Virus record (IMG/VR): IMGVR_UViG_3300025389_000011
Length of the DNA: 64,000 nucleotides
Source: a virus
Lineage: Duplodnaviria > Caudoviricetes
Direction: 5' to 3' (one strand)
In this document: in pieces, positions 23,702-50,922 of the stretch
How positions within the stretch are numbered: position 1 is the first letter of the stretch
Layout: every line of letters starts with the position of its first letter
The notes under the pieces: generated by a model
What the model was told of the DNA's origin: nothing
The model's database searches: none
What the model saw: the letters and a program-made list of their open reading frames with translations, nothing else
Translations under genes and position numbers: made by a program

Positions 23702-24712
23702 TTATGCAATTTTGAAAAAGGGATCGTTCTTAAGCCAATTATAATAGATTTCAAATCCTTCAGCTACGTCTACTTTAGGATCATAATTAAAGTCTTTTTT
23801 AGCGGCAGTACAATCTAATGCACCTCTGCTAGGAAAATCAAAGTCTTTATCACGTACTTCAATTGTGCCACGCCCGGCTAATGATACTGCTATTGATGCG
23901 GCATCATATAAAGTAACTGCATGACTTTTTGTAATGTTATATGTTTTATTGTCTGTGTTGTCACTTAATGATGCGGATACGATACCATCTGCGGCATCAT
24001 CTACGTAGGTGAAATCCAATGTCTCTGTACGTCCGTTAACTTTAAGTATTCCACCACGCATTGCTGTTAGTAAGAATTTACTAATTACTCTGTCTTCAAC
24101 ATCAAGAGGTCCGTATACTGCACTAGGGCGAATTATTGTATATGCTAAATTTTTACGTGCGTAATCTTTAACAAGATGTTCACCTGCAAGTTTCATAATA
24201 CCATATTGACCAATTGGATTACAAATTGCATCTTCTTTTACAACTCCAGTAAAGTCACCATACACCATTGAACTGCTGATATAAATGAATTTTCTAACTT
24301 CATACTTATTACTAGCTTCCAACAAGTTGAGTAATCCTTCACTCATCGTTCTGCTACCAAGTGCAGGATTTGCATTAACTACTTTTTGTCTTGGAAAACT
24401 AGCCATGTGAATTACAATCTCAGGTTCTTCAATTGCAAAAGTTCTATCTACTTTTTCTGCATCACATATATCTCTCAACCAAACTTCACTCTTAAATTTC
24501 TTGGCACGTTGTGTTAATAGGTAATCAATTTCATCTTGAGGTATAATACCGTAATTTGTTTGTGTGTCCATGATACATACATCATGTCCAAGGTCTTCTA
24601 ATCTACTAACAACGTTGTGTCCAATAAGACCGCACCCACCTGTTACTAAAATCTTCATAAGAAAAATATACCTTTTATATACAATCCACTCATAATCATG
24701 TTTAGTAACCAC
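23702..24712 (-). CDS. NAD-dependent epimerase/dehydratase (extended SDR); true start probably MKILVTGG
   Basis: TGGCGLIG, SSSMVYG, YGIMK, DFTYVDD. Confidence 0.9.
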   Translation of the reverse strand: MVTKHDYEWIVYKRYIFLMKILVTGGCGLIGHNVVSRLEDLGHDVCIMDTQTNYGIIPQDEIDYLLTQRAKKFKSEVWLRDICDAEKVDRTFAIEEPEIVIHMASFPRQKVVNANPALGSRTMSEGLLNLLEASNKYEVRKFIYISSSMVYGDFTGVVKEDAICNPIGQYGIMKLAGEHLVKDYARKNLAYTIIRPSAVYGPLDVEDRVISKFLLTAMRGGILKVNGRTETLDFTYVDDAADGIVSASLSDNTDNKTYNITKSHAVTLYDAASIAVSLAGRGTIEVRDKDFDFPSRGALDCTAAKKDFNYDPKVDVAEGFEIYYNWLKNDPFFKIA

Positions 24713-27745: not shown

Positions 27746-27975
27746 TTCTTTAATTCCAATAATATTTCAACACGTTGTAATGCATCATCCATGGTCTTAT
27801 CATCTTGAGCCATTATTACAGCCTGTTTAAGATTTAACCAACGATTAGCAACCTTATCTTCAGGTGCTACTTTAATCATTTCACGTTCGGACGATCCACT
27901 CTTGCGAGAGTAGACCGTCTTACCGCCGTCAGGACTTTCGTATATGATTATTTCTTCAATACTTTTAACTGTCAT
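27742..27975 (-). CDS. Hypothetical protein
   Basis: IYESPDGGKTVY motif, 4-nt overlaps. Confidence 0.7.
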   Translation of the reverse strand: MTVKSIEEIIIYESPDGGKTVYSRKSGSSEREMIKVAPEDKVANRWLNLKQAVIMAQDDKTMDDALQRVEILLELKK

Positions 27976-29249
27976 TTCTCATCATAGAGAGCATAAGTAC
28001 CAAATGGGGGATTTGGATTTTTATCACCATGAATGATCCATGTAGTATCACAATAGTCAGGGTCGCCCCAGCTACCAAAGGGATATCCATCAGTAAACAC
28101 AATCAAACGTTTTGGTTCAATTGCGTTATCTTTAAGATACTTGAAAATACAATCAAAGTCAGTACCACCACCGCCCATTGGTTCGTATTCTGCAATGTCA
28201 TCCATGTTGTCACTATGAAAGTCTTTTGGATTATAAATTTCAGTATCAAAACAGAATACATGGACCTTATAACCATCAAACGCATTCATCATGCCACCGA
28301 TTTCACCTAAGAAATCTTGTGCTTGTTTTTGACTGATACTACCTGACATGTCAAGTGTCACAACAACATCAATTTCTTCACCGGGAGTCATGCCGGGCAT
28401 AATAGCATCAGTATGCCAACCTCTACGTGAAGGACGCATCCAACTATAATCAGTACGAATTGCACTTGTCAAGTTTGTTTGAATCAACTCACGCCAGGGC
28501 ATAACTGGATTAGTAGCCTGCTTGATTAATCGTTCAACACCTTTTGGCAACTGACCTGCCTCGCATGTACTTGCGGCATTAATAATAGCCTGTTTGACTT
28601 CTTGACGAACACGCTCACGTTCCTCAGGACTCATCTTTGGACGTTTATTTTTACCTGTTTGGTCACCATCACCATCACCATCCATGTCACCATCACCATC
28701 CATGTGGTCATCAATCATTTTATCAACCAAATCGTCAATATTGATATGTTGAACATTTTTCATGAGGTCATCATAGATTTCTTCGCTAGGTAGACCATCA
28801 TATTTTGCCTCATACAAACAAGGCACACTTGTAATAAACTCACCTACCTTATGTCGTTTCAAGTCTGCATTAACTGCATAGTCGTTTGCAATATTAAAGA
28901 TTTGATGGTCACGGTCACCTCTACGATCCATGTGGTCATATACCACGTGCAACACTTCATGACCTACTAAGAATTCAACTTCTTTAGGCTTTAGCAACAT
29001 AATGAAACGTGAATTGTAGTAAAACTTCAATCCATCAGTTGCCGCGGTTGAACACCATTCATCGGCATTAACCAATTGCAAACGTGTTGCAAGATTACCA
29101 AAAAATGATTGACGTAATAGTAAACCAACACGGGCAGTAATCAATCGTTCACGGGCTTGTGCATCAATTTTACTGTCAGTTGGACCTACTAGATTTTCAA
29201 ATTTTTTGCTACGCTTACTTTTTTTAGTTGGGGCAATAACGTCACTCAT
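27972..29249 (-). CDS. Metallopeptidase-VWA domain protein (DUF2201-like)
   Basis: HEVLH zinc motif, DMSGS MIDAS, GGGGTDF. Confidence 0.88.
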   Translation of the reverse strand: MSDVIAPTKKSKRSKKFENLVGPTDSKIDAQARERLITARVGLLLRQSFFGNLATRLQLVNADEWCSTAATDGLKFYYNSRFIMLLKPKEVEFLVGHEVLHVVYDHMDRRGDRDHQIFNIANDYAVNADLKRHKVGEFITSVPCLYEAKYDGLPSEEIYDDLMKNVQHINIDDLVDKMIDDHMDGDGDMDGDGDGDQTGKNKRPKMSPEERERVRQEVKQAIINAASTCEAGQLPKGVERLIKQATNPVMPWRELIQTNLTSAIRTDYSWMRPSRRGWHTDAIMPGMTPGEEIDVVVTLDMSGSISQKQAQDFLGEIGGMMNAFDGYKVHVFCFDTEIYNPKDFHSDNMDDIAEYEPMGGGGTDFDCIFKYLKDNAIEPKRLIVFTDGYPFGSWGDPDYCDTTWIIHGDKNPNPPFGTYALYDEK

Positions 29250-29275
29250 ATATGTTCCTTATTTACAATACTAGT

Positions 29276-29304
29276 AGTATACAATAATATTGATTTATTG
29301 TCAA
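29276..29304 (-). promoter_or_regulatory. Sigma70 early promoter
   Basis: TTGACA-17 nt-TATACT. Confidence 0.8.
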
Positions 29305-29332
29305 TTAAAGCGGGACCGAAGTCCCGTTTTAA

Positions 29333-30436
29333 TTAGTTACCGGCTTCTACAATGTATTTACCGTATTTCTTGTGAAACTCATCAAAGTGTTTCAATTGAC
29401 TTGGCTCGATTGGCAACTTGTAAGTTTTCAATGCAATCTTGGCACCCATCACAACCAATTCAGTTTCAAAGTTTTTCATGATGTATGACAAGAAATTGTC
29501 AGCCATGTCATGGAATTGTTTTTGATTAACTTTCTTACCTTCAAGTGCATCACGCAATTCATAGCACATTGAAACGGTCAATGAGTACATTGCACTAATT
29601 TCTTTTACATTAAGTTCAGTTACCTTACCTGACAAGATATCAGCAGGGTCGGGCATCTTACCTGCAATCTTGCGGTGTGCCGCAAACTTAACTGCAAGAC
29701 CTTCACCAACTGCACCTGCTACCAAGTTAAACAAGGTATCAGTATCGGTATCAGCCTCATCATTCAACAAGTCACTAACGAAACACCAGCTACGTGGAGT
29801 AGCGAATGCACGGCTAGCCGATTTGCTATCAAAATCATACAAGTCTTGTTTAGCGAAAGACAAGTAACCAACCACGTCCTTATGGATACCTTTTTCAACT
29901 GCCCAGTTTTGCCATGCAGTAAAGTCAGGGCGCATTTCTAAGTGCAAGAAACGATTAGCAAGGGGCATTGGCATACGATATGTAACACCTTTGTCACTAT
30001 CACGATTACCCGCCGCAACAATTACAACATTGTCAGGCAATACATACTTACCAACACGACGGTTAAGAATCAATTGATAACCCGCAGCCTGCACAGCTGG
30101 ACTTGCACTATTCATTTCATCTAAGAAAAGAACCACGATTGGATATTCTTTTGCAAGTTCCTCATCAGGCAAGTCAACTGGAGACGCCCAATCCATTTTA
30201 TTCAAGTCACGATTAAAGAATGGAATACCACGAATGTCAGTTGGTTCCATTTGCGCCATACGCAAATCAATCATGTGACCACCTAATTCTTCAGTAACTT
30301 CGGCTACCACTTCTGATTTACCGATACCGGGAGGTCCCCACAAAAAGATAGGACGCTTTGCTTTGAATGCACGTAAAATTGCTTTACGGGCCTGTACACT
30401 AGTAATAGTGAGATTGTCTGATACATGAGATGCCAT
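29333..30436 (-). CDS. MoxR-like AAA+ ATPase
   Basis: GPPGIGKS, LFLDEMN, AAGN, LANRF. Confidence 0.9.
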   Translation of the reverse strand: MASHVSDNLTITSVQARKAILRAFKAKRPIFLWGPPGIGKSEVVAEVTEELGGHMIDLRMAQMEPTDIRGIPFFNRDLNKMDWASPVDLPDEELAKEYPIVVLFLDEMNSASPAVQAAGYQLILNRRVGKYVLPDNVVIVAAGNRDSDKGVTYRMPMPLANRFLHLEMRPDFTAWQNWAVEKGIHKDVVGYLSFAKQDLYDFDSKSASRAFATPRSWCFVSDLLNDEADTDTDTLFNLVAGAVGEGLAVKFAAHRKIAGKMPDPADILSGKVTELNVKEISAMYSLTVSMCYELRDALEGKKVNQKQFHDMADNFLSYIMKNFETELVVMGAKIALKTYKLPIEPSQLKHFDEFHKKYGKYIVEAGN

Positions 30437-32177: not shown

Positions 32178-32206
32178 ATTATATGCCCAAAACGATTTAT
32201 TGTCAA
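32178..32206 (-). promoter_or_regulatory. Consensus sigma70 early promoter
   Basis: TTGACA-17 nt-TATAAT. Confidence 0.85.
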
Positions 32207-32222: not shown

Positions 32223-33227
32223 CTATTTGATAGGAACTAGGTTGTCTCTAAAGATTTCCCATGCACGTTTCCAAGACCAACGAAAACTACCTTTCAGTAC
32301 TTGATTTCTGTCTAATTGTAAACAGCTATCAATAGCATGGGTTAGGTTCTCATTCATGAACCCCGTGACCCCTTGTTCAATTACATCCATAGGACCTTGA
32401 CAAGGGTATGCCGCAACTGGCGTACCACACGCCATTGCCTCAATCATTACAATACCAAATGTTTCCCATTGGCTGGGGAATACAAATACATCAGCATTTG
32501 CATAATAGACTGCCAAGTCTTTACCTGTTTTGAAACCAACAAAATTAACATCAGGATATTTTTTCTTGTACGTTTCTAACATAGGACCATCACCAACCAT
32601 TGTTTTTCTTGCGCCCGGATAATCTAATTCAAAAAAGTCTTCTAAGTTTTTTTCTTTGCTAACACGTGCAACGCACAATAAATCAATTACACCCACTTCA
32701 CTATACTCATGTCTTTGTTTAGTATTGAAAATTGTTCTATCAACCCCACGTGTCCATGGAATAACTTCACCGTCAAATCCATGCTTACGTAATTCAGCAA
32801 CCATGCTGTCAGTCGTTGTTAAAACCTTGCCACTATGCTTATGAAACCAGCGTACAAAGCGCCAAGTAAGTGATTCAGGTATTCCAAATAGTTTGTTAAG
32901 TCCTTCAGGGAATTTAGTATGATAAGCAGTATTGTGCCTAATACCACATTTTGCAAGATATGCTCTAGCCCACAAACCAAGAGGACCTTCTGTGGCGATG
33001 TGGATATGATCCGGATCAATCTTCGCAATCTTCTTGCCCATGTTCCTTGGATAGCTAAGTTTGACTTCGTTGTAGCCAGGACAATCAATATAGCTGAACC
33101 ACCTGGGGTCAATATAATCAATAGTATAACCATCCAGTATCGCAGGAGCCTCAAGATTTTTGTAAGTCGTGACAACGCCATTGATTTGATCCGGTAAATT
33201 ATCCGTTATTATCAGTATTTTCTTCAT
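32223..33227 (-). CDS. agt: GT4 glycosyltransferase, Agt-like (glucosyl/glucuronosyl-diacylglycerol synthase type)
   Basis: TD...QINGVV, HIATEGPLG, YHTKFPE, RVSKEKN, ETFGIVMIEAMACGTPV. Confidence 0.75.
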   Translation of the reverse strand: MKKILIITDNLPDQINGVVTTYKNLEAPAILDGYTIDYIDPRWFSYIDCPGYNEVKLSYPRNMGKKIAKIDPDHIHIATEGPLGLWARAYLAKCGIRHNTAYHTKFPEGLNKLFGIPESLTWRFVRWFHKHSGKVLTTTDSMVAELRKHGFDGEVIPWTRGVDRTIFNTKQRHEYSEVGVIDLLCVARVSKEKNLEDFFELDYPGARKTMVGDGPMLETYKKKYPDVNFVGFKTGKDLAVYYANADVFVFPSQWETFGIVMIEAMACGTPVAAYPCQGPMDVIEQGVTGFMNENLTHAIDSCLQLDRNQVLKGSFRWSWKRAWEIFRDNLVPIK

Positions 33228-33299
33228 AAAATGTTTCTTTAATGGCTAAAATTAAAGTTAATCCAATCCAAAGCACAAACATGCTAATTATAAAATATT

Positions 33300-34184
33300 T
33301 CATTTTGCTTTGAATTTAATGTATTCTGTAATGATATCTGCAACGTCTACATTACAGAATTTTTCAAAGCCAAAGAATCCTGGATTACTGTTAGCCTCAC
33401 AAACTCTGAAACCGTTTTCGTCAAACAATAAATCAATACCGGCAATGTCTAAACCTAATACATGTGCTGTTTCTCTAGCCATGAATTCAATTTCTTCTGT
33501 GAGAGGGTAATTTTCACCAGTACCGCCACCTGTGATATTAGCACGGAAGTCTCCTTCAGGCGCTGTACGTTTCATTGCACCTACAACTTTACCGCCAATA
33601 ACTAACACACGCAAATCTTCACCTGGTCTATGGCCCATGTATTCTTGTACAATCATGGTTTTCTTGTTTCCAAGTTTTTCTACAAACTCTACAAGTTTTT
33701 TATAATCTTTTTTACGTTCACATAAATGAACACCTTCGCCATAGCTACCGGTAACAACTTTAACTACACAGGGGAATCCAATGTTTTCACTAACCAATTT
33801 ATCTTCAATAGGCCAACGTACCAACATTGTGTTCGGGATCGGAATTCCTGCACGACTTAGTATTTGACTGGTACGCAATTTATCTTTAACAGTTTCGATT
33901 GCAACGCTTCCATTTACACATGGAATACCGCATTGTTCAAAATGTCTGATAACTGCTAATTGGAATGGGAGAATACCTGCACCTAATCTAACTAGTACTA
34001 GTCTAGGTAACTCCATGTCTTGACCTTTATACTTGATACCTTTACGAATATCTCTATTCACGACAATATCAAAATCGTCAGGGTGAGCCATCATGGCTTT
34101 AATGCCCTTGCTTTCAAAACTTTCAATCAATTTATTTGATTCGTATTCGTTTCGTTCTAACTTAGTTAATACTAATACTGTCAT
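33300..34184 (-). CDS. rimK: RimK-family ATP-grasp glutamyl ligase
   Basis: DKLRT.Q.L, P.VVKV..GS.G.GV, QEY, DLRVLVIGG, FRANI..GG, CEANSNPG. Confidence 0.88.
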   Translation of the reverse strand: MTVLVLTKLERNEYESNKLIESFESKGIKAMMAHPDDFDIVVNRDIRKGIKYKGQDMELPRLVLVRLGAGILPFQLAVIRHFEQCGIPCVNGSVAIETVKDKLRTSQILSRAGIPIPNTMLVRWPIEDKLVSENIGFPCVVKVVTGSYGEGVHLCERKKDYKKLVEFVEKLGNKKTMIVQEYMGHRPGEDLRVLVIGGKVVGAMKRTAPEGDFRANITGGGTGENYPLTEEIEFMARETAHVLGLDIAGIDLLFDENGFRVCEANSNPGFFGFEKFCNVDVADIITEYIKFKAK

Positions 34185-34932
34185 CGTTTGCTTTCGTCCA
34201 AGTTATTATTTCCCAATGCCCATCATGATGTTCTACTAATGCAGTCATTGATTCTACCCAGTCACCGTCATTCATGTAAATCACATCATCTATCATTTTT
34301 ATTTCTGCATGATGTATGTGTCCGCATATTACTCCATCAAATCCACGCTTTTTACAATAAGCTGTTATATTTTTTTCAAACTGAAACACAAAGTCTGCGG
34401 CTTTTTTAACTTTGTGTTTCAAAAATTTACTTAAGCTCCAATAACCTAATCCTAGTTTATGTCGTAACGCATTGAATTTACTGTTTAATTCTAATACAAT
34501 ATCATACATCTTGTCACCTAAAAAGGCTAACCAGGGTGCTAATTTAGTAATCCCATCAAACAAATCCCCATGCGTTACCAAATAGTGTCTGCCATCAATA
34601 CCTATATGCTCAGTTTGATTAACAATTTCTACTGCACCAAATCCCAATCCATACGGTATTAACGGCCTAAGAAATTCATCGTGATTTCCTGCTACATACA
34701 CAACTCTAGTGCCACGTTTGGCATGTCCTAAAACTCTACGAACTACATTGCTATGACTTTGTTTCCAACGCCATTTATTTTGTTGAATTTTCCAAGCATC
34801 AATAATATCTCCCACTAAGTAAAGTGTTTCACACGTATTGTGTTTTAAGAAATTATTAAGTTGTTCTGCTTTACAATCTCTTGTACCAAGATGAACATCA
34901 CTAATAAAAATGGTTCGGTATGTTTTTTTCAT
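34162..34932 (-). CDS. plcP: PlcP-like metallophosphoesterase (often auto-annotated as UDP-2,3-diacylglucosamine hydrolase)
   Basis: RTIFISDVHLG, LVGDIID, GNHDEFLR, HGDLFD, CGHIH, NDGDWVES; GNHD rather than LpxH GNRD; TAAATA at 34938-34943. Confidence 0.78.
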   Translation of the reverse strand: MKKTYRTIFISDVHLGTRDCKAEQLNNFLKHNTCETLYLVGDIIDAWKIQQNKWRWKQSHSNVVRRVLGHAKRGTRVVYVAGNHDEFLRPLIPYGLGFGAVEIVNQTEHIGIDGRHYLVTHGDLFDGITKLAPWLAFLGDKMYDIVLELNSKFNALRHKLGLGYWSLSKFLKHKVKKAADFVFQFEKNITAYCKKRGFDGVICGHIHHAEIKMIDDVIYMNDGDWVESMTALVEHHDGHWEIITWTKANDDSISIN

Positions 34933-34955
34933 AGCAATATTTATCTTGCTAGGTG

Positions 34956-35174
34956 TTAAGGACTTTTGATTGTTTCATCTAATTTTGGAGATACTTTTTG
35001 ATAGTATTCCTCAGGTGGATTAAAATTCCAACTATCTGCTGTAAAGATACGTATTGGTTTCCAATAATGATGCATAATGTTATTGATAACAATAATACCA
35101 ACTACAACTACCACCAATGCTAACATTGTTAGAATGCTACCAGCCAAAACTCTTGCGGCTATTTCCATATCCAT
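34956..35174 (-). CDS. Small single-pass membrane protein
   Basis: Hydrophobic residues about 5-32. Confidence 0.6.
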   Translation of the reverse strand: MDMEIAARVLAGSILTMLALVVVVVGIIVINNIMHHYWKPIRIFTADSWNFNPPEEYYQKVSPKLDETIKSP

Positions 35175-35213
35175 GCTAATTCCTATTACAAAAAACTAAT
35201 TATACAAAAAAAC

Positions 35214-35235
35214 AAAGGCTCTGTACAGAGCCTTT
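35214..35235 (-). terminator. Intrinsic terminator
   Basis: AAAGGCTCT/AGAGCCTTT stem then T7 on minus strand. Confidence 0.75.
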
Positions 35236-35259
35236 GGGTATTAACATTTCAATCTAAGA

Positions 35260-35814
35260 TTAGAATGAACGTGTGTATGATAAGTTATAGCTATGATTTT
35301 GGCTATCACCACGAACGCGGTCATAACGTAAACCGATACTATCTTTCTTTGTCAATGCATAGCTTAAGCCAGCACGAACGGTATCTGTTGTATCATTGTA
35401 CACATTTGGGTCTACCATAGCAGTACGATAACGGAATCCAACTTTAGCAGTTGCTTTACCTAATGTGTAAGTAACACCAGGCTCAACGCTGTAGTAACCA
35501 AAATTAGCACCATTTGTATACTTTTCACCAACTGCAACACGTGTATAAACACCAGCTGGTCCGAATGATAATGCACCAGTTACACCAGCTTCCAAACGTG
35601 TACTTAATACGTCAGTTGCTTGTTGTTGATAATTGGTAAAACTTACGTCACCTGCAAAAGTATTGTTGATTGATTCTTTTACAGAAACTTGGTAGTTAGT
35701 TGAATTTTTAGCACCTTTGTCACCTAATTGGTCTTGACCTTCTAGGGTAACACTAGCGGCTGATACGAAACCAGCAAAAGCCATTAGGGCTAAAGTTAAA
35801 GCGAGTTTTTTCAT
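35260..35814 (-). CDS. Outer-membrane beta-barrel protein
   Basis: Sec signal peptide (VSA/AS), alternating amphipathic strands, C-terminal YxxxF (LSYTRSF). Confidence 0.8.
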   Translation of the reverse strand: MKKLALTLALMAFAGFVSAASVTLEGQDQLGDKGAKNSTNYQVSVKESINNTFAGDVSFTNYQQQATDVLSTRLEAGVTGALSFGPAGVYTRVAVGEKYTNGANFGYYSVEPGVTYTLGKATAKVGFRYRTAMVDPNVYNDTTDTVRAGLSYALTKKDSIGLRYDRVRGDSQNHSYNLSYTRSF

Positions 35815-35914
35815 TGTTATTTCCTTTTGTTAATGAATCGACAACTTCTTGTCTTGAACATGTATTTATTGTAAAATTAGTATTCTACAAAAAAATACAT
35901 GTGTTTTTGGTCAT

Positions 35915-36826
35915 TTACGCTGGAATAAAATCAATACCACTACCTGCTAATACGCCTGTAGTTGCTGGAGCAATACCAACTAATCCAATTGTTTGTTGGA
36001 ATGCTGTTAGATGTGCCGCGGCATTTAGTAATGATACTTCAGTCGCTGTACCTGTTGCTAGTTGAGTAACGAAAGGCAATGCTTGTGTTGGTGTGGGTGC
36101 AACACCCATAACGTTAGTATAAACGTTATTAACGAATGTAGCATAGTCTGGGTTAGCTGTTTTGAATGGTGTGCTACCAACAATAGCTTGTGCAATACCT
36201 AAACTAGTTGTACCTGCATCTTCTAATTTGATACCAAGACCTTCGTATGTAGTATTAACTGTTCCACCGAAACCTGCTTTAAGCAATGCATATACATCAC
36301 CGGCGTTACCATTGATGTCAAATGCTGTGGCTTTATCTGTAAAAACTACTCTCTCATGTTGTTCCAACTTGAATGATACTGTTGTATTCAAAGTACTTGT
36401 TACATTAATAACCTTGTTTGTAGTGTCATTAACCACTGTATAGTCTGCGCTCTTGTCATTGAATGTATATGTGTCAACACCTGTAGTGCCTGTTACATCA
36501 ATAACTGTGTTTATAGTTCCATTACCAATTGCGCCTGCACCAACTGAACCAAATGTTTTAATTGTACCATTTGTTCCGATTGATCCAACTGTGATAATGT
36601 CGTTGTTAACACCCGTTGTTCCACCTAAACTTGCGCCTGGGATAGTAATCGTGTCACCAACGGCATATCCTGTACCAAGATTTGCTGTTTCAATAACAGT
36701 AGTGTACACACCATTTGTTTTTGTTACATCAAATTTAGCACCAGTACCAGCACCAGTTGTAGTACCAGTAACTGCCGTGTAAGTTGAGTTGATTGGTAAT
36801 TCGCCAATTGTTATCGTAGTTGTCAT
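35915..36826 (-). CDS. Thr/Gly-rich surface protein with DUF4214/S-layer-like C-terminal domain
   Basis: G.GYAVGDTITI beta motif; FVNNVYTNVMG.AP helical motif; no signal peptide. Confidence 0.55.
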   Translation of the reverse strand: MTTTITIGELPINSTYTAVTGTTTGAGTGAKFDVTKTNGVYTTVIETANLGTGYAVGDTITIPGASLGGTTGVNNDIITVGSIGTNGTIKTFGSVGAGAIGNGTINTVIDVTGTTGVDTYTFNDKSADYTVVNDTTNKVINVTSTLNTTVSFKLEQHERVVFTDKATAFDINGNAGDVYALLKAGFGGTVNTTYEGLGIKLEDAGTTSLGIAQAIVGSTPFKTANPDYATFVNNVYTNVMGVAPTPTQALPFVTQLATGTATEVSLLNAAAHLTAFQQTIGLVGIAPATTGVLAGSGIDFIPA

Positions 36827-36905
36827 GTTTTTAATTCCTTTTTAAAACGTTATTATAATTTTTATTATCTAAGATGTATGTGATTGTAGTCACAAAGATT
36901 GAAAG

Positions 36906-36929
36906 AAAGCCCACATATAAGTGGGCTTT
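36906..36929 (-). terminator. Intrinsic terminator closing the tmRNA transcript
   Basis: AAAGCCCAC/GTGGGCTTT 9-bp stem followed by CTTTC on minus strand. Confidence 0.8.
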
Positions 36930-37090
36930 GGTATTTTCTGTTTCGAGGTATATCCTACCCAATAGTGGCTTACGCCGCTAAAGAATAAACGCTATCGTTT
37001 GCATTTATAAGTTTTGCTTGATTTACGGTCATCGCCTACCGAGTTGTCCATTTACGTACTTATCACCCTGTCGAAACCAAGTCAGGCCCA

Positions 37091-37213
37091 TCAAAAATTA
37101 TCATTCCATAGCTGTTCTAATTCAGGATCTACTGGGCCATGATCGGCAACAAGTGCCCATACATTTACTACTACCCAGATAATACCTATTGAATAAAACC
37201 AATGCCATTCCAT
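37091..37213 (-). CDS. 40-aa membrane microprotein inside the tmRNA intervening sequence: MEWHWFYSIGIIWVVVNVWALVADHGPVDPELEQLWNDNF
   Basis: ATG at 37213, TGA at 37093-37091, AAAGG RBS 6 nt upstream directly after the CCA; occupies 123 of 135 IVS nt. Confidence 0.7.
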   Translation of the reverse strand: MEWHWFYSIGIIWVVVNVWALVADHGPVDPELEQLWNDNF

Positions 37214-37295
37214 ATAATACCTTTTGGTGGACCTGGCGGGAGTCGAACCCGCGTCCAGAATGCCTTTCGGCTCACTTCATACAACAATAACTCTC

Positions 37296-37324
37296 AGTAT
37301 ATATTTATTTGATAATACTGTCAA
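37296..37324 (-). promoter_or_regulatory. tmRNA promoter: sigma70 consensus with embedded TAAATA
   Basis: TTGACA (37324-37319)-17 nt-TATACT (37301-37296); TAAATA at 37307-37302. Confidence 0.8.
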
Positions 37325-41118: not shown

Positions 41119-44100
41119 TTATAAATCAATACTTTGTTGATAAATGTTAAATAACCATTCCCAGTCGTAACTTAACATTAATTTTTGCAAGTCTCCGCCC
41201 ACTGAGTCATAGTAATCCATAGCATCATGTGCGCCTTTTTTGCTTTCTTCACCAAAATTACCGTTACCAATATTTAACCAAGCATGTAAACGTTCTTTAT
41301 TTTCATCAGTGCCACTATGTCTTAGTTTGATTGTTTCACGGAAAGCAGTACGCCAAGTGTCCCATGCGCTAGAATTATACATAGCGATACCACAGTTTAA
41401 TGGGACTACTTCGTGTTCACTATCCAATGTAAAGTCTAACCCTCTTACTTTGGTGTTAAGAGTTAATATTTTATTGTTAGCAACAATAGCTTGGTGACCA
41501 TATTCTAATCCATTTACGGGATTAGTTGCATTAAAGATATAGTGTTTTGGTATTTGTAACCTGTCAGGCTGCCAACTAAAATCAAATGTTTTATTCACTT
41601 TTAATTTTGCGTTAACTAAGAAATACCATGGTGTTGATGAGTTATACGCCGCAGTATGTTGACTAAGTACACGACCTTTAATATTGTCCAAACGTATTAC
41701 TTTATTACCTAAGTTTTTAGTAACACTTAACAAATGCTCATAATTTGCATCAGCACATGCTTCACCATTACTTAAAAAGATAATATCTAACGGATTAGAT
41801 TTTAATAACTTAGGTGACCTAGTGATATAAGGATAATCATATAACTCACGCTCAACATAATTTTTAGCCTCACTAGGGACTGTAATTCTAGTGCCGCCAG
41901 TACTTTTAATAACAATGTTTTTGTGGTCAGGTGCCCATAAACTTATAGGTTCATTTTCATCTTTTAGATTGATTAAGTTTTCATTATCACCTGTAATAAA
42001 CTCTGCATACGGAAATGTAAAGTCATAGTTAGACAACTCAACGTGGGTATCTTCTTTTACCAATATAACTGGAGCAGATAGTCGTTTAACACGTTGATGT
42101 TGATTGAAGTTAACTTTTTCATAATCCTCTAGTCTAATCATATCATTAACAAGACTTAAAAATTTATTAACATCTACTAAGAACGTATCACCAAACTTTT
42201 GCTTGTCGCTAGGGAACACATGCAGTTGATCCTTAGCATATGGATCGCAAATATAACTAAAATCAAAATCTTTATAGTCACAAATGCTACTGCAAATCCA
42301 AACATAATGTTCTTTTTTAGTTTCTAATGTCTTTAAATAGTTTTTAAGTGTCTGTAAGTAACTGTTATCAAACTTAATGATAGTTGTTGGCTTAAGAGTT
42401 TTTTCAACGATAGTGTCATTTACAGCCCTGAATTCTTTTTTAAAGTTTCCATGATTACCATGGTCTATTAACACAACATCATACAAACAATCAGTGGCTA
42501 CTGCTATTTTCTTTTTAACAAAATTCAATACATTCAAGTGTTCAATCACTTTTACATATTTTGTATCTTCAGGGAATGTTTCTTTGTTTACCATGAATGT
42601 AGTTCCCCAATGACTCCATTGAGTTCCAAATACATGCACCATTTTCATTTGCCATGGGCTAGGATAAAAGTCAAATTGAAAATCAGTATAGTCTAACTCG
42701 CTGTTCAATATCCAACATAAATTGGTTTCCGATTTAGTTAAACAACGAGTGATGGTGTCTACCCAGCTGTTTAAATAACGTGTTTTTTGAATTTGCGGAT
42801 ATCTTAATTTGAGTGCGTTATATCTGTTTGTTGACTCAAGATTACCCCTATCCACAAAGAACATACTTAAGTTACTATCAATTTCTACTGTTTGACTGTC
42901 AACGTAATTATATTCACGGTGACCTAACATGTACATAGGAGCGTTAACATAGTATGTCTGTGTGTTCATACTATATTCATTACCAAATACATTTATGTGT
43001 AGAAAGTTTTCTTCGTTAGGTCTCCAACTAAAGTCAAACTTATCGTAACTTAAGTCAGGATTGATAGCCCAAAACACCTCATCTTGATGCTCATTAATTA
43101 AATCCTCAAGTGTTGTTTTAATCTTGTAATGTTTTACAATACTACGTGTGATTTCTTCAGTACGTTTCATAAAAACAACTTCGGCATCTTTTAGTACGTC
43201 AGGGTCTGCGTATCTGGGTCCGTTATCTTCCCACTGATAAATTTGCAACGGGCTATGTGGATTGGGTCTCCAACTAAAATCAAACGTTTCTAAATCATCA
43301 TTGTTACTAATATGCCAATACTTTAAGTCTGGTCTTGGTGTAGCTACAATATCTTTAATGTACTTGAATTCTGTAGCACCCTCTACATAGTATTCTAATG
43401 TGGCTTCAACTGTGGCGTCATTCCATTTGTTTCCAAACACATAGATATAAGGAGGATCCATTGGATCAGGTCTCCAACTATAATCAAAACTTTCTACAGG
43501 AATTAATGTTTTCCATTTGCTCATGTCAGGCAACGTTGATGCTACTTTGTCATGCATGTATTTCTTTTCAGTAGCACCTGGGCAATGATACTCTACTGTT
43601 GGTTCAAATTCTGCGCTGTTAAACTTATTACCCCATACATAAATGAATGCTGGTTCACGTGGGTCAGGTCTCCACTTAAAGTCAAAACTATTTTTATTTA
43701 CTGGAATAAGAATATTCCATTTATCCCATTCAGGTTGCACATCAACTTCACCGATATACTTGCGTTCAGTAGCGCCCGGGCAATGATACTCTAATGTAGC
43801 CTGTAACTCAGCGTTGATATATTTGTTACCCCACACATAGATGTAATCAGGCTCACGTGGATCTGGTCTCCAACTAAAATCAAAATTTTCTACGTTTTGT
43901 AGTATCTTCCAATTTTCTATAATAGGCAATACTTCAGCAGGTTCTGCCATGTATTTCTTTTCAGTAGCACCGGGGCAACGATATTCTATTGTTGGTTGTA
44001 GTTCTCCAGCAATCCATTTGTTACCCCATACATAAATGTATGCTGGTTCTCTTGGATCAGGTCTCCAACTCATATCAAACTTGTTTCTGTCTACAGGTTG

Positions 44101-46431
44101 ATATTCTATCCAACGTTCATATTGAGGGACAACTTCAACATCGCCCATGTACTTGCGTTCACTTGCTCCTAGACAATGGTATTCTATTGTGGGCTGTAAT
44201 TCACCTGCAATCCATTTATTACCCCATACATAAATGTACGCTGGTTCTCTTGGGTCGGGACGCCATGTCATATCAAAGTCTACAGGTTCTTGATAAACAC
44301 GCCACAACTCTTGTTCAGGTAATACTTCAACATCACCCATATATTTGCGCTCAGTTGCGCCTGGATAATGATATTCTATTGTAGATTTTAATTCACCGGG
44401 TATCCATTTATTACCCCATACATAAATGTATGCTGGTTCACGTGGATCTGGGCGCCATGTCAAGTCAAATTTCTTTATATCAATTGCCTGAACCATTGTC
44501 CATCGTTCAAATTCAGGTACCACTTCTAATAGTTCTTCCATAAATTTGTATTCTGTTGCACCTTCAACAATATATTCAAGTGTGGGAATAATATTCCCTG
44601 GCACATGTTTGTTACCCCATACATAAATATAGGGAGGGCTTGTTGGATCCGGTCTCCATGTCATGTCAAATTTAGTTTTATCAACTTCTGAAGGATGTAG
44701 TTTCCAATTCTTACTAACAGCCAATTTAACATCTTGCGACATGTGTTTGATTTGTGTTGCACCTGGTACAATATATTCTACAGTGGGTTTTAATTCACTA
44801 CTATAATGTTTATTGCCCCATTGGTAAATGTATGGTTCTTCAGTTGCATCAGGATGCCAGCTATAATCAAAATCTAACACATCTTCATGTGTTACCCAAT
44901 TTTCTGTTGTTGATTGAGCAATTGCTTTAATCGTGTCAACATACTTGATAGGCGAATCCATAGTGCATCCAACAGCAGTAAAGATAGGTCCACCTGTTTT
45001 TTGATGCTGTGTACCAAACTGATATATCATTGGTTCATCTTGTATATCAGGATGCCAACTAAAATCAAAACCTTCTGTGATACAGCCTTCAGGTATTGCC
45101 CAATGATCCATATCAACTTTGGCAGTTGCTGTCTGTACATCAATATACTTAAACTCAGTTGCACCCTCTACAACAAAGCGTGGTCCACCTGAATGTTGCC
45201 ATTGACTTGGAAACTGATAGATATATGGATCTTCTGTTAAGTCTGGATGCCAACTAAAGTCAAACGTACTTCTATCAATGTTCATTGGAATTTGCCAATT
45301 TAAAAATTGATAGCAAACCACTAGTGATACCGGATTATCAACATATTTTAACTCAGTAGCACCTTCAATATAGTATTGTGGGCCATCTGTTTTTTGCCAT
45401 TGTGTTCCAAATTGATATACATAGGGAGGGTCATTGGGATTTGGTTCCCAACTATAATCAAAGCTACCTTCTGCAACGTGTACAGGTACTCGCCAATTAT
45501 CCATACAAGGTAAACGTATTGCACGTTCTTCCATGTACTTGATTTCTGTTGCGCCTTCTACAACATATCTAACACTTGCTTTATCTTCTGGCTTATTCCA
45601 TTGATTGCCCCATACATAAATGTAGGGAGGACTTGTTGGATCGGGTACCCAACTAAAATTAAATGCCAACTTATCAATATCTTCTAGTATTTCAAAATCT
45701 TCTGGTCTACGTACTAATTCAGGAGTAAAGTCATCAATATACTTACGTTCGGTGGCACCTTCTACATGAAACTCAATCGTTGGCATAATTGTGCCAGGGT
45801 ATTGATTGTTACCAAACACATAGATATAAGGAGGGCTAGTTGGATCAGGTACCCAACTAAAATCAAATTTAATAACTGGATGTATTATTTTAAATAGTCT
45901 TGGACTTTGTGCAAGTATTGCTATTTTGTCTATAACATATTTTCTATTGATAGCACCGGGTACATGATATTCTACCGTTGGCATGATAGCACCACTGTGC
46001 CATTGATTACCAAACACATAGATATAGGGAGGGTCACTGGGATCAGGATGCCACTTAAAATCAAACTGCTCTCTATCAATATTTTCTAGTATCTTCCAAT
46101 TTTTACTTATTTCTAATTCTTTGAATTGTAGAGGGTCTACATCAGCCCTGTAAACCATTAAATAATCACTACGATTAGGACACAACCATGTACCACTGTC
46201 TTTTTGATATTGACTGGGCCAGACATTAATATGATCTTGTGCCCATACATCTTCATCTGGTAATAACTCAAAATCAAAGTCCCAGTCAAAGTCACGATAA
46301 TCACACCGTTCGTTGATTATCCAAAAATGTTCTGTAGTGGCCTGTGATAATGCATCTTCAAATGAAGTTGCATGTTTTTCTCTAGGGTGGGCGTTTGGTT
46401 TTTCGCCATAGTAAAATACATCTCTTAGCAT
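41119..46431 (-). CDS. 1770-aa tandem-repeat protein with C-terminal GT-A-like domain
   Basis: About 15 clear and 5 degenerate ~60-aa units FD(F/M)SW(R/H)PDP..P.YIYV(W/F)GN.W...P..EY..PGATE.KY; C-terminal LDIIFLSNGE... Confidence 0.8.
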   Translation of the reverse strand: MLRDVFYYGEKPNAHPREKHATSFEDALSQATTEHFWIINERCDYRDFDWDFDFELLPDEDVWAQDHINVWPSQYQKDSGTWLCPNRSDYLMVYRADVDPLQFKELEISKNWKILENIDREQFDFKWHPDPSDPPYIYVFGNQWHSGAIMPTVEYHVPGAINRKYVIDKIAILAQSPRLFKIIHPVIKFDFSWVPDPTSPPYIYVFGNNQYPGTIMPTIEFHVEGATERKYIDDFTPELVRRPEDFEILEDIDKLAFNFSWVPDPTSPPYIYVWGNQWNKPEDKASVRYVVEGATEIKYMEERAIRLPCMDNWRVPVHVAEGSFDYSWEPNPNDPPYVYQFGTQWQKTDGPQYYIEGATELKYVDNPVSLVVCYQFLNWQIPMNIDRSTFDFSWHPDLTEDPYIYQFPSQWQHSGGPRFVVEGATEFKYIDVQTATAKVDMDHWAIPEGCITEGFDFSWHPDIQDEPMIYQFGTQHQKTGGPIFTAVGCTMDSPIKYVDTIKAIAQSTTENWVTHEDVLDFDYSWHPDATEEPYIYQWGNKHYSSELKPTVEYIVPGATQIKHMSQDVKLAVSKNWKLHPSEVDKTKFDMTWRPDPTSPPYIYVWGNKHVPGNIIPTLEYIVEGATEYKFMEELLEVVPEFERWTMVQAIDIKKFDLTWRPDPREPAYIYVWGNKWIPGELKSTIEYHYPGATERKYMGDVEVLPEQELWRVYQEPVDFDMTWRPDPREPAYIYVWGNKWIAGELQPTIEYHCLGASERKYMGDVEVVPQYERWIEYQPVDRNKFDMSWRPDPREPAYIYVWGNKWIAGELQPTIEYRCPGATEKKYMAEPAEVLPIIENWKILQNVENFDFSWRPDPREPDYIYVWGNKYINAELQATLEYHCPGATERKYIGEVDVQPEWDKWNILIPVNKNSFDFKWRPDPREPAFIYVWGNKFNSAEFEPTVEYHCPGATEKKYMHDKVASTLPDMSKWKTLIPVESFDYSWRPDPMDPPYIYVFGNKWNDATVEATLEYYVEGATEFKYIKDIVATPRPDLKYWHISNNDDLETFDFSWRPNPHSPLQIYQWEDNGPRYADPDVLKDAEVVFMKRTEEITRSIVKHYKIKTTLEDLINEHQDEVFWAINPDLSYDKFDFSWRPNEENFLHINVFGNEYSMNTQTYYVNAPMYMLGHREYNYVDSQTVEIDSNLSMFFVDRGNLESTNRYNALKLRYPQIQKTRYLNSWVDTITRCLTKSETNLCWILNSELDYTDFQFDFYPSPWQMKMVHVFGTQWSHWGTTFMVNKETFPEDTKYVKVIEHLNVLNFVKKKIAVATDCLYDVVLIDHGNHGNFKKEFRAVNDTIVEKTLKPTTIIKFDNSYLQTLKNYLKTLETKKEHYVWICSSICDYKDFDFSYICDPYAKDQLHVFPSDKQKFGDTFLVDVNKFLSLVNDMIRLEDYEKVNFNQHQRVKRLSAPVILVKEDTHVELSNYDFTFPYAEFITGDNENLINLKDENEPISLWAPDHKNIVIKSTGGTRITVPSEAKNYVERELYDYPYITRSPKLLKSNPLDIIFLSNGEACADANYEHLLSVTKNLGNKVIRLDNIKGRVLSQHTAAYNSSTPWYFLVNAKLKVNKTFDFSWQPDRLQIPKHYIFNATNPVNGLEYGHQAIVANNKILTLNTKVRGLDFTLDSEHEVVPLNCGIAMYNSSAWDTWRTAFRETIKLRHSGTDENKERLHAWLNIGNGNFGEESKKGAHDAMDYYDSVGGDLQKLMLSYDWEWLFNIYQQSIDL

Positions 46432-46439: not shown

Positions 46440-47921
46440 TTATGAAAGTACTGTTATACCATAAAGTTTTTCAAATCTATCTGCATCATTACGGTCATTG
46501 ACCATGGGCTCACCACGTATGTTTAAACTTGTGTTTAATAACATAGGGCAACCGGTTAGTACATACCATTTTTCGAGTAGTTCTCGAATACCTGATCCAT
46601 CTTTAGGAACAGTTTGGATACGACTAGTGCCGTCATGATGAACGATAGCAGGAAATAAGTCAGGATACCTACAAGTACCGACGACTTGCATATACCTACT
46701 GTTATGCCAATTGAGAGGCATAGTAAAATAATCATTAACATACTCTTCCAGAATAACTGGGGCAAATGGTCTAAATTTTTGTCTACGTTTGATTTCATTT
46801 ACTTTATCCTTAATTTCATTTCCTCTAGGGTCTGCTAATAAACTACGATTGCCTAACGCTCTTGGTCCAAACTCTGCTCGTCCGTTTGCAACTCCCACGA
46901 TTTTACCATTAAGTAAAATATCAAGCAACTTGTTAGTAGGATAAGCCCCGGTAATATCAGTACCGAGAAAAGCATTATTCCAATTAACACGCTTACTATA
47001 ACCCAAGCCGGCACTGCCAAGACTATTCCCAGCATCGCCAGGATTAGGCATAATCCAAATGTTTTCATAGTATTTTCCTAAAATTCTATTTGCTACACAA
47101 TTAAGTGCTACTCCCCCACCATATACCAAATTTTTACTTGGTCCCAACACCTTTGCAAGTGTCACCACATTGGTTATTAATTGTTCAGTTAGCAACTGAG
47201 TACTTGTTGCCAAATCCATTGGATCAGCATTATGTATAAATTCTTTATCAACACCCGTGTGTAAATTTTCTTTAAATGTTATTGTAAGACTATCTTGTAG
47301 TAACTGTCTATGTAACTGGGCATAGTGTTTATTTTCACCATATGCTGCCATACCCATAAAAATATATTCTTCTTCGTTGGCTTTTAACCCAACGCTATCA
47401 GTCATGGCACTATAAAACAAACCAATACTATGTGGGTATTTTTTACCCCATAATTTTTTATATGTTGCAACACCATTAACATAACGTGCGTCCCAAATAC
47501 TTATAGTATCAAACTCACCTATCGCATCAATTACAACAACGGTTGCATCAACAAAACTGCTTGTTTGAAATCCACCAGCCGCATGACACAAATGATGTCC
47601 ATGTGTATGTATCTTTTTATTACCTAATAACTTCATATTTTCCTTGCCAATGATGTTACTAGCAAACAAACTACTAAGTTTAGGTTGTTCCCCGCTACGC
47701 AATTGTCTTAGAAATTTAATGGTAGGACGTTCATAGTAGTGCAATTCATAATCACCCTTAACATATGATAGTGCATCTAATATCAATTCACGATTTAAGT
47801 CTTTATCGTTTTTGATTTTACTATAGCGTTCGCTATGACCAGCGAACAAAATATTACCACTATCATCTATTACACTCAATGCACCATCATGAAATCCACA
47901 ACTAATGCCTATGTAGTTCAT
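46440..47921 (-). CDS. Carbamoyltransferase (NodU/CmcH family), start MNYIGIS
   Basis: GFHDGA, HH.CHAA, DAIGE, GGVALNC, PGDAG, EFGPRALGNRS, KRRQ.FRPFAP, LNTSLN. Confidence 0.93.
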   Translation of the reverse strand: MNYIGISCGFHDGALSVIDDSGNILFAGHSERYSKIKNDKDLNRELILDALSYVKGDYELHYYERPTIKFLRQLRSGEQPKLSSLFASNIIGKENMKLLGNKKIHTHGHHLCHAAGGFQTSSFVDATVVVIDAIGEFDTISIWDARYVNGVATYKKLWGKKYPHSIGLFYSAMTDSVGLKANEEEYIFMGMAAYGENKHYAQLHRQLLQDSLTITFKENLHTGVDKEFIHNADPMDLATSTQLLTEQLITNVVTLAKVLGPSKNLVYGGGVALNCVANRILGKYYENIWIMPNPGDAGNSLGSAGLGYSKRVNWNNAFLGTDITGAYPTNKLLDILLNGKIVGVANGRAEFGPRALGNRSLLADPRGNEIKDKVNEIKRRQKFRPFAPVILEEYVNDYFTMPLNWHNSRYMQVVGTCRYPDLFPAIVHHDGTSRIQTVPKDGSGIRELLEKWYVLTGCPMLLNTSLNIRGEPMVNDRNDADRFEKLYGITVLS

Positions 47922-48760
47922 TTGATATACTCTTTGGTTTTTTCTGCCCAATATTCGTGATGTATAGGTCCAAGATGACTTTTGTCTCTAGCCAAATCTT
48001 TTTCGATATCAGTTTCAGTATATTGTTTGTAAAATCTATCAAATACTCTACCAAATTGTGGTATAATTACTGCACTGGTTAAATCCATGTGTTTCAAAAA
48101 TTCGTATGTGTTACCGTCCCACGCTGAAAGATATATTTTGATATTTCTTTCTTTGGCAATTTTTTCTGCCAAATAAATATCATTCCTAAGGTTCTTGTAC
48201 ATATCTTCCTCAGGTGTACCTTTATACAATGATTCAACATCAACTTTGTATTTTTTTAACATAGGATCAGTAGATTGAGCTGATGACATATACAATATTT
48301 TATGTGTCTCTGCGTTAATTTTAGCTATCTGTAATCGCATATAGGGAGATAACACCAATATTGCATGTTTCATGGTTACATGTTTAGATATAATTAAAAA
48401 TAAATCTATGATACTTTTAGGTGACAATCCATTCATTGCAAAGTTCAAATGCGACATGTTTAATTGTTTAGCCAATAATGTATGCCACAACATGTCTACG
48501 GGTAATCCCAATCCTGCACAATAGCTACAACCAAAAATACCAATATCAGTTGTCGAAGGTATTTCATCGCTATCCATGCGAAATCCAAATTTATTATAGT
48601 TGTAATTAAATTTTGAATATTTCTTTTCCCATTCACTGGAAAATTTCATGTCATCGAGGCTAGCAAATTCAAGTTGAAATGAACTAGTCGCAGTTGTGTA
48701 AGAAGATACATCACTTATATTTTTTGAATCTAATAAATTCAATTTAGCTATACTTTTCAT
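47918..48760 (-). CDS. SGNH-like hydrolase/acyltransferase
   Basis: YNYNKFGFR, FGCSYCAG.G, LNFAMNG.S, RDKSHLGP..H. Confidence 0.7.
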   Translation of the reverse strand: MKSIAKLNLLDSKNISDVSSYTTATSSFQLEFASLDDMKFSSEWEKKYSKFNYNYNKFGFRMDSDEIPSTTDIGIFGCSYCAGLGLPVDMLWHTLLAKQLNMSHLNFAMNGLSPKSIIDLFLIISKHVTMKHAILVLSPYMRLQIAKINAETHKILYMSSAQSTDPMLKKYKVDVESLYKGTPEEDMYKNLRNDIYLAEKIAKERNIKIYLSAWDGNTYEFLKHMDLTSAVIIPQFGRVFDRFYKQYTETDIEKDLARDKSHLGPIHHEYWAEKTKEYIK

Positions 48761-48783: not shown

Positions 48784-48888
48784 TCATTTATAAATAAAAG
48801 GATCTCTTTTACGTAATTCTTTAATGCGTTTACGATAACGTAATTCCATTTTGATTTTATAGTATATATTTTTAATCCAACTAAACAT
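48784..48888 (-). CDS. 34-aa basic microprotein MFSWIKNIYYKIKMELRYRKRIKELRKRDPFIYK (not in ORF track)
   Basis: Fills the gap exactly; start overlaps the upstream stop region; manual translation. Confidence 0.7.
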   Translation of the reverse strand: MFSWIKNIYYKIKMELRYRKRIKELRKRDPFIYK

Positions 48889-50155: not shown

Positions 50156-50922
50156 ACTATATTTAAGGTTCTTTTAACCAATGGGAATAATTCTTGTCTG
50201 AAATACATTAAATGTCCGGCTTCATTAACATGATTGTCGATAAAATGATAATGGTTCCAATTGTGTTCAAAGTCCATACGCCCAGAAAAATCATACCTAG
50301 CTATATGTCTATATTGCAAATGTTTAAGTATTTCTAATTCTTTGAATTTAGTATTCATATCAGAATGTATTGTTTCGGGATTACACCATAAAAATTTTAT
50401 ATTTTTAGATGTTACAAACGAATAAGTTGCCAATGTTGACATTAAACTTTGATAATACATTATTGTGTCATTTGTAAGATATTTGTAAAACTGAACTCTT
50501 GCATTTCTATATTCATTATATGCGATTGGATATAATGGATTATTTATTTTATCCGGGTCATCGCCCCAAGCAGGGCACCACGGCACAATCATTTCAGGAT
50601 CTTTATACCCTGCTAAACTAAAACGATCCATGAATGTTCCATTAAATAACACCAATGCTATATCGTCATGTTGATTGATATAATCAACTGTGTCCTTGAA
50701 AATTCCAAATTGACTATTGCCCGGGCTTGCTAAATTAACTACATTATAATATGGTAACTGTTGATTTAATAATGTTGCCCAGCAGTATTCGCTAGAAGGG
50801 TCATTGGGATATTCAAAGGGTTTACCTAAATGAGTTTTTGTTTTCTCATCAAAATAATATATTCTATCCTTACAACCTTGACCATATGTATAGCTATCCC
50901 CTACTACTAATATTGTACTCAT
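50152..50922 (-). CDS. SGNH/GDSL-like hydrolase
   Basis: GDSYTYG, NLASPGNS, DNHVNEAGH. Confidence 0.8.
   Translation of the reverse strand: MSTILVVGDSYTYGQGCKDRIYYFDEKTKTHLGKPFEYPNDPSSEYCWATLLNQQLPYYNVVNLASPGNSQFGIFKDTVDYINQHDDIALVLFNGTFMDRFSLAGYKDPEMIVPWCPAWGDDPDKINNPLYPIAYNEYRNARVQFYKYLTNDTIMYYQSLMSTLATYSFVTSKNIKFLWCNPETIHSDMNTKFKELEILKHLQYRHIARYDFSGRMDFEHNWNHYHFIDNHVNEAGHLMYFRQELFPLVKRTLNIV

Follow-up and report, generated by a model that had tools for sequence, protein, structure and literature searches.

A putative PlcP–Agt lipid renovation module with an intervening rimK gene, probably carried by an uncultured jumbo myophage

Does a large phage encode enzymes that would draw phosphorus from the membrane of its host and, at the same time, keep that membrane intact with glycolipids? 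The question is raised by a locus on the IMG/VR virus record IMGVR_UViG_3300025389_000011 (Duplodnaviria; Caudoviricetes), of which a stretch of 64,000 nucleotides, hereafter the window, was analyzed. An earlier note, made from the DNA letters, had read positions 32223–34932 as a two-gene module encoding PlcP, a phospholipase C releasing diacylglycerol, and Agt, a glycosyltransferase converting diacylglycerol to a glycolipid. After comparison with bacterial and viral relatives, we estimate at roughly 0.72 the probability that in this locus an uncultured jumbo myophage bears its own copy of the bacterial PlcP–Agt "lipid renovation" pathway, with a rimK gene between the two partners.

The boundaries of the interval are exact: 34932 begins the ATG of the first gene, the stop codon of the last one ends at 32223, and both genes of the proposed pair lie on the minus strand. 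However, the interval contains three minus-strand genes instead of the expected two:

34162..34932, minus strand: PlcP-type metallophosphoesterase, 256 aa, ATG at 34932, Pfam Metallophos
33300..34184, minus strand: RimK-family ATP-grasp ligase, 294 aa, Pfam RimK and Rimk_N, TIGR00768
32223..33227, minus strand: Agt-type glycosyltransferase of family 4 (GT4), 334 aa, last base of the stop codon at 32223, Pfam Glyco_transf_4 and Glycos_transf_1

The co-orientation of the pair thus holds, while its adjacency does not, as the overlooked RimK gene, one third of the interval in length, stands between the partners. The 5′ end of rimK overlaps the 3′ end of plcP by 23 nt, and a 72-nt gap separates rimK from the GT4 gene. 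The sequence motifs on which the two-gene reading was built are all present (GNHDEFLR in the phosphoesterase; QINGVV at residues 14–19, HIATEGPLG at 76–84 and YHTKFPE at 102–108 in the GT4), and the Pfam matches confirm both protein families.

The first gene encodes a protein matching Pfam Metallophos with E = 1.6e-10 and possessing a complete metal-binding set (DxH, GD, GNH[D/E], H, GHxH); residues D12, H14, D42, N83, H84, H121, H205 and H207 are invariant among 42 aligned phosphoesterase homologues. Its AlphaFold model (predicted local distance difference test score, pLDDT, of 89) is folded like LpxH and has a helical insertion spanning residues 127–196. The top 25 PDB and top 30 Swiss-Prot fold matches are all LpxH, an enzyme of lipid A synthesis, at 16–22% identity. 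The likeness lies in a calcineurin-like fold with a helical lipid-binding cap, but in sequence the phage protein departs from LpxH. It scores 49.7 and 38.1 bits against the two NCBIfam LpxH equivalogs, far under their cut-offs of 134 and 190. Its GNHD motif aligns opposite GNRD of solved LpxH, in a sequence match that is itself marginal (E about 1e-4), which bears out the earlier remark that histidine stands here where LpxH has arginine. GNHD or GNHE is found in all 96 PlcP-type sequences, and GNRD in all four true LpxH proteins compared (Escherichia coli, Pseudomonas graminis, Chromobacterium and Limnohabitans).

A phylogeny with LpxH as outgroup has been used previously for PlcP assignment (PMC9239053), and the same check had been suggested for this locus. 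In our maximum-likelihood tree, the four true LpxH are split from all other sequences by a very long branch with support 100, and the window protein does not cluster with them. It falls into a phage clade (support 99) nested among proteins whose genes immediately precede those of agt-type GT4s; the clade also takes in a homologue from Pelagibacter phage Mosig. Proteins 48–57% identical to the window phosphoesterase are present in 80 bacterial genome loci. Limnohabitans, P. graminis and Chromobacterium possess such a PlcP-type paralogue together with a true, above-cut-off LpxH encoded elsewhere in the genome; Azospirillum and Caulobacter possess the paralogue only, and sampling of 401 genomes from Azospirillum's class showed it in 144. 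Given the tree split, the GNHD in place of GNRD and the scores far below the LpxH cut-offs, the window phosphoesterase is by sequence a member of the PlcP-type paralogue group and not LpxH. We predict that it acts as a phospholipase C, releasing diacylglycerol and a phospho-head group.

The last gene of the module encodes a GT4 protein with an N-terminal PF13439 and a C-terminal PF00534 domain. Its model (pLDDT 92) has a GT-B fold of two Rossmann-like halves. In Swiss-Prot, the nine closest folds without exception belong to enzymes working on membrane glycerolipids, namely corynebacterial and mycobacterial MgtA-type mannosyltransferases, plant SQD2, a phosphatidylinositol-dimannoside mannosyltransferase and alpha-monoglucosyl-diacylglycerol synthases of Streptococcus and Acholeplasma. 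MgtA mannosylates glucuronosyl-diacylglycerol. SQD2, for its part, is credited with making glucuronosyl-diacylglycerol (PMC3586718).

The window GT4 is 38–43% identical over its full length to GT4s encoded directly downstream of bacterial plcP, 29% identical to an unrelated neighboring GT4 (locus L026) and 13–24% identical to reviewed GT4s from the fold search. As a yardstick for the Agt clade we used about 35–58% identity to members and less than 25% to other GT4s, in a comparison set that did not include the characterized Agts. In the SAR11 enzyme GTcp (334 aa), residues G16, G82, G85, R190, K195, T257, F258, G259 and E264 as well as a His104–Asp256 dyad proved to be required, and the motifs read GRVAxEKN and FPSxTDTFG (PMC8231724). 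The window protein has ARVSKEKN and FPSQWETFG at the corresponding places. Its G17, G81, G84, H103, R188, K193, T256, F257, G258 and E263, matched to GTcp by motif and not by alignment to GTcp itself, show no or almost no variation across an alignment of 52 sequences, which comprises the window protein, 48 GT4s encoded next to bacterial plcP and three phage relatives. The phage GT4s form one clade in the tree, with support 100. The identities and the retained residues uphold the Agt-type assignment proposed earlier and support grouping the protein with the GT4s encoded after plcP in bacteria. Its predicted reaction is the transfer of a sugar from a uridine diphosphate (UDP)-sugar donor to diacylglycerol.

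Phage Agt-type GT4s (loci L101–L180) come with two active-site flavors, FPSxWETFG (33 of 49, the window protein among them) and FPSx[A/T/S]DTFG (13 of 49). The two flavors are only about 50–60% identical to each other and may use different sugar donors. An NAD-dependent sugar-nucleotide epimerase/dehydratase, below every equivalog cut-off, is encoded 10 kb from the module (23702–24712, minus strand); it could supply or modify a nucleotide sugar, with no specific link to Agt.

The bacterial counterpart of this gene pair is well documented. The arrangement of plcP upstream of agt has been described (PMC4796936, PMC9239053) and is known in marine heterotrophs, methanotrophs, Pseudomonas and Burkholderia. 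PlcP examples include Sinorhizobium meliloti SMc00171, Phaeobacter MED193_17359, Pseudomonas aeruginosa PA3219, Burkholderia cenocepacia BCAL2364 and the protein of Methylosinus trichosporium OB3b, while Agrobacterium tumefaciens Atu2297, SAR11 HTCC7211 GTcp, PA3218/PA0842 and BCAL2365 are examples of Agt. Published identities are 46–51% between characterized PlcPs and 35–58% between characterized Agts, and those of the phage PlcP and GT4 to operon-encoded bacterial members fall inside these ranges. A full-length homologue of the window GT4 lies directly downstream of the phosphoesterase gene, on the same strand, in 52 of the 80 nearest bacterial loci. In the operon types of Sebastian et al. 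(2016), plcP stands next to a glycolipid glycosyltransferase gene; in the window only rimK intervenes.

With the bacterial operon the phage locus has in common both protein families, the plcP-then-agt order, the orientation and the GNHD metal motifs; the UDP-sugar motifs are kept too, as are the residues that GTcp needs. It differs in its jumbo-phage owner and in forming its own clades, at most 57% (PlcP) and 43% (GT4) identical to the bacterial copies found. Further differences are the inserted rimK, the lack of any Pho box or dagK found, and a glutamate in place of Asp256 of GTcp.

That the window is phage DNA, as the earlier note supposed, is evident from genes encoding a large terminase, a UvsX-like recombinase, a helicase, gp32-like and gp9/10-like proteins and thymidylate synthase; all long open reading frames (ORFs) of the window lie on one strand. 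The terminase is nearest, at 50% identity, to those of PA5oct-like jumbo Pseudomonas phages and other phages of 290–470 kb, and relatives of the module reside on metagenome contigs of 265–345 kb built of small genes lacking Pfam matches. The window probably belongs to an uncultured jumbo myophage. The guanine-cytosine content of the module, 0.35–0.38, is like that of the rest of the window.

Close metagenome relatives of both proteins number in the thousands, and at least 600 IMG/VR contigs encode a phosphoesterase at least 80% identical to that of the window; the locus counts given below for phage plcP refer to the best 80 of these contigs. The GT4 gene directly follows the phosphoesterase gene in 47 of the 80 loci, and RimK intervenes in six. 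Outside its own cluster, the best full-length match of the phosphoesterase in a library of 1.8 billion proteins is 54% identical, the higher-ranking matches being short fragments. All three genes evolve under purifying selection relative to their relatives, with nonsynonymous divergence (dN) of 0.09–0.17 and synonymous divergence (dS) above 1 or saturated; for the phosphoesterase alone, dN is 0.09–0.14 and dS is saturated. Low dN with high dS, phage clades of their own and the lack of a closer outside match together indicate an old acquisition with long residence in phages under strong purifying selection, and neither a recent pick-up nor a decaying passenger. Recent capture from a host is ruled out by the full-length ceiling of 54%, the 49–57% identity to the nearest bacterial genomes and a base composition equal to that of the window. 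A single ancient acquisition of the pair is probable, followed by evolution inside the phage lineage.

Related phosphoesterases occur in cultured phages as well. The Mosig homologue is 51% identical and adjoins a gene annotated "putative phosphate ABC transporter"; both Mosig and Synechococcus phage S-SRM01 have plcP without agt, labeled in GenBank as a lipid A enzyme. These two phages and the aquatic T4-like phages with pstS, phoA or phoH follow the same logic, in which a lytic aquatic phage carries a host phosphorus-stress function. Unlike Mosig and S-SRM01, which carry the phosphoesterase only, the window phage adds the putative glycolipid synthase, so that the whole substitution pathway would be phage-encoded. 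A PlcP-type protein 57% identical to that of the window and grouping with the Mosig protein, away from those of other bacteria, is also encoded on a 348-kb contig of a "Pseudomonadota" metagenome-assembled genome (L014, JBCCBQ010000005.1). It has no adjacent agt; the contig is similar in size to jumbo-phage contigs, but its dense overlapping ORFs look bacterial.

The gene inside the pair encodes a RimK-family protein of full architecture, with a PF18030 pre-ATP-grasp and a PF08443 ATP-grasp domain and 229 bits against TIGR00768 (cut-off 143). It does not reach the cut-off for RimK proper (NF007764, 158.5 bits versus 331) and remains below that of every RimK, MptN, LysX and CofF equivalog; its substrate is therefore not assignable. 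It shares the domain architecture and the subfamily-level score with the wider family, represented by E. coli RimK, MptN, CofF, LysX and the proteins of cyanophages S-RIM8, S-RIM12 and S-RIM32. In contrast to these, it is embedded in or located beside plcP–agt in many related phages, a context absent from the bacterial and cyanophage loci examined; cyanophage genes annotated as "S6 glutaminyl transferase", whose products are 44–47% identical to it, occur without plcP. The slot between plcP and agt is also occupied in relatives. Across 82 IMG/VR loci encoding RimK proteins 53–83% identical to that of the window (L181–L262), four gene orders with plcP are found: plcP-rimK-agt, plcP-rimK, plcP-agt-rimK and rimK-plcP. 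RimK is probably a co-expressed, independent auxiliary gene sharing an island with plcP.

Transcription of the module can be outlined from the following minus-strand features around it:

35236-35213, minus strand: intrinsic terminator of the porin-like gene, strong, with a 10-bp stem and a T run
35227-35199, minus strand: sigma-70-like promoter TGTACA-17-TATAAT, 10/12 positions matching, overlapping the terminator
34956..35174, minus strand: ORF of 72 aa with one hydrophobic helix, the first gene past the promoter, without a Pfam family
32178..32206, minus strand: perfect consensus sigma-70 promoter TTGACA-17-TATAAT, just 3′ of the GT4 stop codon

The promoter at 35227-35199 is the likely start of the module transcription unit. 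The perfect promoter at 32178..32206 appears from its position to open the next unit, composed of small genes, and by this marks the 3′ boundary of the module. It is one of three sigma-70 promoters with 12/12 matching positions (32206-32178, 31860-31832 and 31562-31534, all on the minus strand), each located before a small ORF directly downstream of the module; this block looks like early genes read by host RNA polymerase. The porin-like gene (35260–35814, minus strand) encodes a 184-aa outer-membrane beta-barrel-like protein with a signal peptide, a C-terminal Phe and a weak Porin_4 match; about a dozen related contigs encode homologues of 32–64% identity immediately before plcP. Homologues of the 72-aa ORF (43–60% identity) occur near the module in a few relatives and do not always adjoin it, which rules it out as a conserved module member.

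Another element ahead of the module had been singled out in the earlier note, a TAAATA motif, and this suggestion did not survive. The element is GATAAATA, located 5 nt ahead of the plcP ATG. The exact T4 late motif TATAAATA is found five times in the window versus 10.7 expected by chance, thus rarer than expected, and never before the module; on these counts the element carries no weight, and a T4 late promoter at this place is rejected.

We hypothesize the following course of events during infection. The 72-aa ORF, plcP, rimK and agt would be transcribed as a unit from the sigma-70-like promoter. PlcP, presumably an LpxH-like phosphoesterase that depends on Mn and binds lipid with its helical cap, would cut host phosphatidylethanolamine or phosphatidylglycerol into diacylglycerol and soluble phospho-head groups, from which host phosphatases could free phosphate for phage DNA synthesis. 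Agt, going by its family, would glycosylate the diacylglycerol with glucose or glucuronic acid taken from a UDP-sugar, and the resulting phosphorus-free glycolipid would keep the membrane intact until lysis. RimK would be co-expressed and most likely act elsewhere, for example on the C-terminus of a protein. We share the view of the earlier note that phosphate supply for genome synthesis with a preserved membrane can reasonably be inferred as the purpose of such a system.

Several observations speak against this lipid renovation pathway or leave parts of it unexplained. The trees contained no experimentally characterized PlcP or Agt, and for this reason membership in these families rests on synteny, published identity ranges and motifs. 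The window GT4 has E255 where GTcp has the catalytic Asp256; the same glutamate is found in 31% of the 52 Agt-type GT4s in the alignment, a set drawn mostly from bacterial plcP loci, and in 33 of 49 phage relatives. Neither GT4 nor RimK was detected directly downstream of the phosphoesterase gene in 20 of the 80 phage loci, and a plcP retained without agt implies that the glycosyltransferase is dispensable for the gain to the phage. Exchange of lipids also leaves the presence of RimK unexplained. Finally, no Pho box CTGTCATNNNNCTGTCAT with up to three mismatches was found near the module in a search allowing up to five, a weak negative, as the host consensus may differ. The best match within 34900–36000 has four mismatches and lies inside the porin-like gene, with none upstream of the module. 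A search of the 64-kb window found no pstS (Mosig query), fatty-acid desaturase or class-I glutamine amidotransferase gene. With neither a Pho box nor pstS found, a link to phosphate starvation is not visible in the window.

The missing Pho box and pstS would also suit a different use of the same two enzymes, in which the benefit lies in an altered cell surface that hinders superinfecting phages, grazers or membrane-active antimicrobials, or in a membrane tuned for assembly of large virions or for lysis. According to published reports, lipid renovation alters vulnerability to grazing and also to one last-resort antibiotic, while the aminolipids, a separate lipid class, influence phage attachment (PMC9457565, PMC9938194, PMC8528852). 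Membrane-related neighbors of the module in relatives, namely the desaturase (21 of 80 loci), the porin-like protein and curli CsgF/CsgG, point in the same direction. However, plcP standing by itself in a quarter of the relatives (20 of 80), in Mosig and in S-SRM01 fits head-group release better than glycolipid display, and in Mosig the gene adjoins that of the putative phosphate transporter. These cases favor head-group release as the core benefit, and we regard a primary role at the cell surface as unlikely. Less probable still is that the phosphoesterase is LpxH after all and the GT4 a lipopolysaccharide or cell-wall glycosyltransferase, with the phage altering host lipopolysaccharide. The source annotations of relatives do read "UDP-2,3-diacylglucosamine pyrophosphatase LpxH" and "glycosyltransferase involved in cell wall biosynthesis", and the nearest solved fold is LpxH. 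This is countered by scores of 49.7/134 and 38.1/190 bits, by identities of 17–22% to LpxH versus 49–57% to PlcP-type paralogues, by the replacement of the LpxH-specific arginine with histidine, by the fully supported tree split, and by the presence of the paralogue as a second gene in genomes with a true LpxH.

The remaining alternative concerns RimK, which might be a true third enzyme of the pathway, ligating glutamate or another amino acid to a pathway carboxylate such as glucuronosyl-diacylglycerol, or acting in some other way on a PlcP product, with a modified lipid or head group as the outcome. In its favor, plcP is the commonest RimK neighbor (34 of 82 loci), in the four gene orders listed and often with overlapping frames; the two genes share 23 nt in the window, and the scores below every equivalog cut-off leave the substrate undefined. 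On the other hand, the gene is absent from all 80 bacterial plcP loci examined and, among the 80 nearest phage plcP loci, present in no more than about 10, which are dispersed across the plcP tree (seven changes for 10 rows). In about 42 of the 82 loci with RimK, plcP is missing from the surrounding 3.5 kb, cyanophages have RimK without plcP, and large phages tend to gather their auxiliary genes in variable islands, a habit that could by itself explain the proximity. We therefore find a working third component quite doubtful. If true, it would mean that these phages make a class of membrane lipid or metabolite undescribed in bacteria. One candidate precedent, Burkholderia KGADG as an amino-acylated glucuronosyl lipid, was dropped, because KGADG is keto-glucuronosyl-diacylglycerol.

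Relatives of the module have varied neighborhoods. A fatty-acid desaturase gene is located within 6 kb of plcP in 21 of the 80 relatives (for example L005, L009 and L101). In some relatives, agt is directly followed by a gene for a 680-aa CHASE2-guanylate cyclase (L005, 9010–11052), and curli CsgF/CsgG genes lie upstream. The window showed neither the desaturase, the cyclase nor the curli genes, in a search aimed at the desaturase only. A class-I glutamine amidotransferase-like gene follows the pair in L003 (a 341-kb relative; 9922–10626) and L116, with no RimK inside.

The window itself has further features of note. About 2 kb upstream of the module lies a circularly permuted two-piece transfer-messenger RNA gene with the tag ANDSVYSLAA (36879–37317, minus strand). 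A 1770-aa ORF occupies 41119–46431. Radical S-adenosylmethionine-like genes form a long back-to-back run (48881–63657, minus strand), and a Nol-type carbamoyltransferase gene (46440–47951, minus strand) comes after it in the direction of transcription. On the other side of the module, a MoxR-like AAA ATPase is encoded beside a DUF2201 metallopeptidase/von Willebrand factor A-domain protein (27972–30436, minus strand), a pair typical of large phages.

The pathway is well known in bacteria; what is new here is its phage owner, the separate phage clades and the insertion of RimK. Full-text literature searches found no publication on a phage-borne PlcP or PlcP–Agt pair. The known phosphorus-related auxiliary genes of phages serve uptake (pstS) or scavenging outside the cell (phoA). 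A phage PlcP–Agt pair would add a third route, the mining of the host membrane while keeping it intact. By a rough estimate, a genome of about 340 kb contains about 7e5 phosphorus atoms per copy. A small planktonic cell has a few million phospholipid molecules, and a single genome copy thus equals a substantial share of them; where phosphorus is scarce in the water, the supply from the membrane could therefore cap the burst size of a jumbo phage. An auxiliary gene table from a lake virome lists "lpxH" among viral genes (PMC9611531). As virome surveys list such genes under this lipid A name, the viral part in lipid-based phosphorus cycling, and in the glycolipid signals of lakes, has probably been misfiled.

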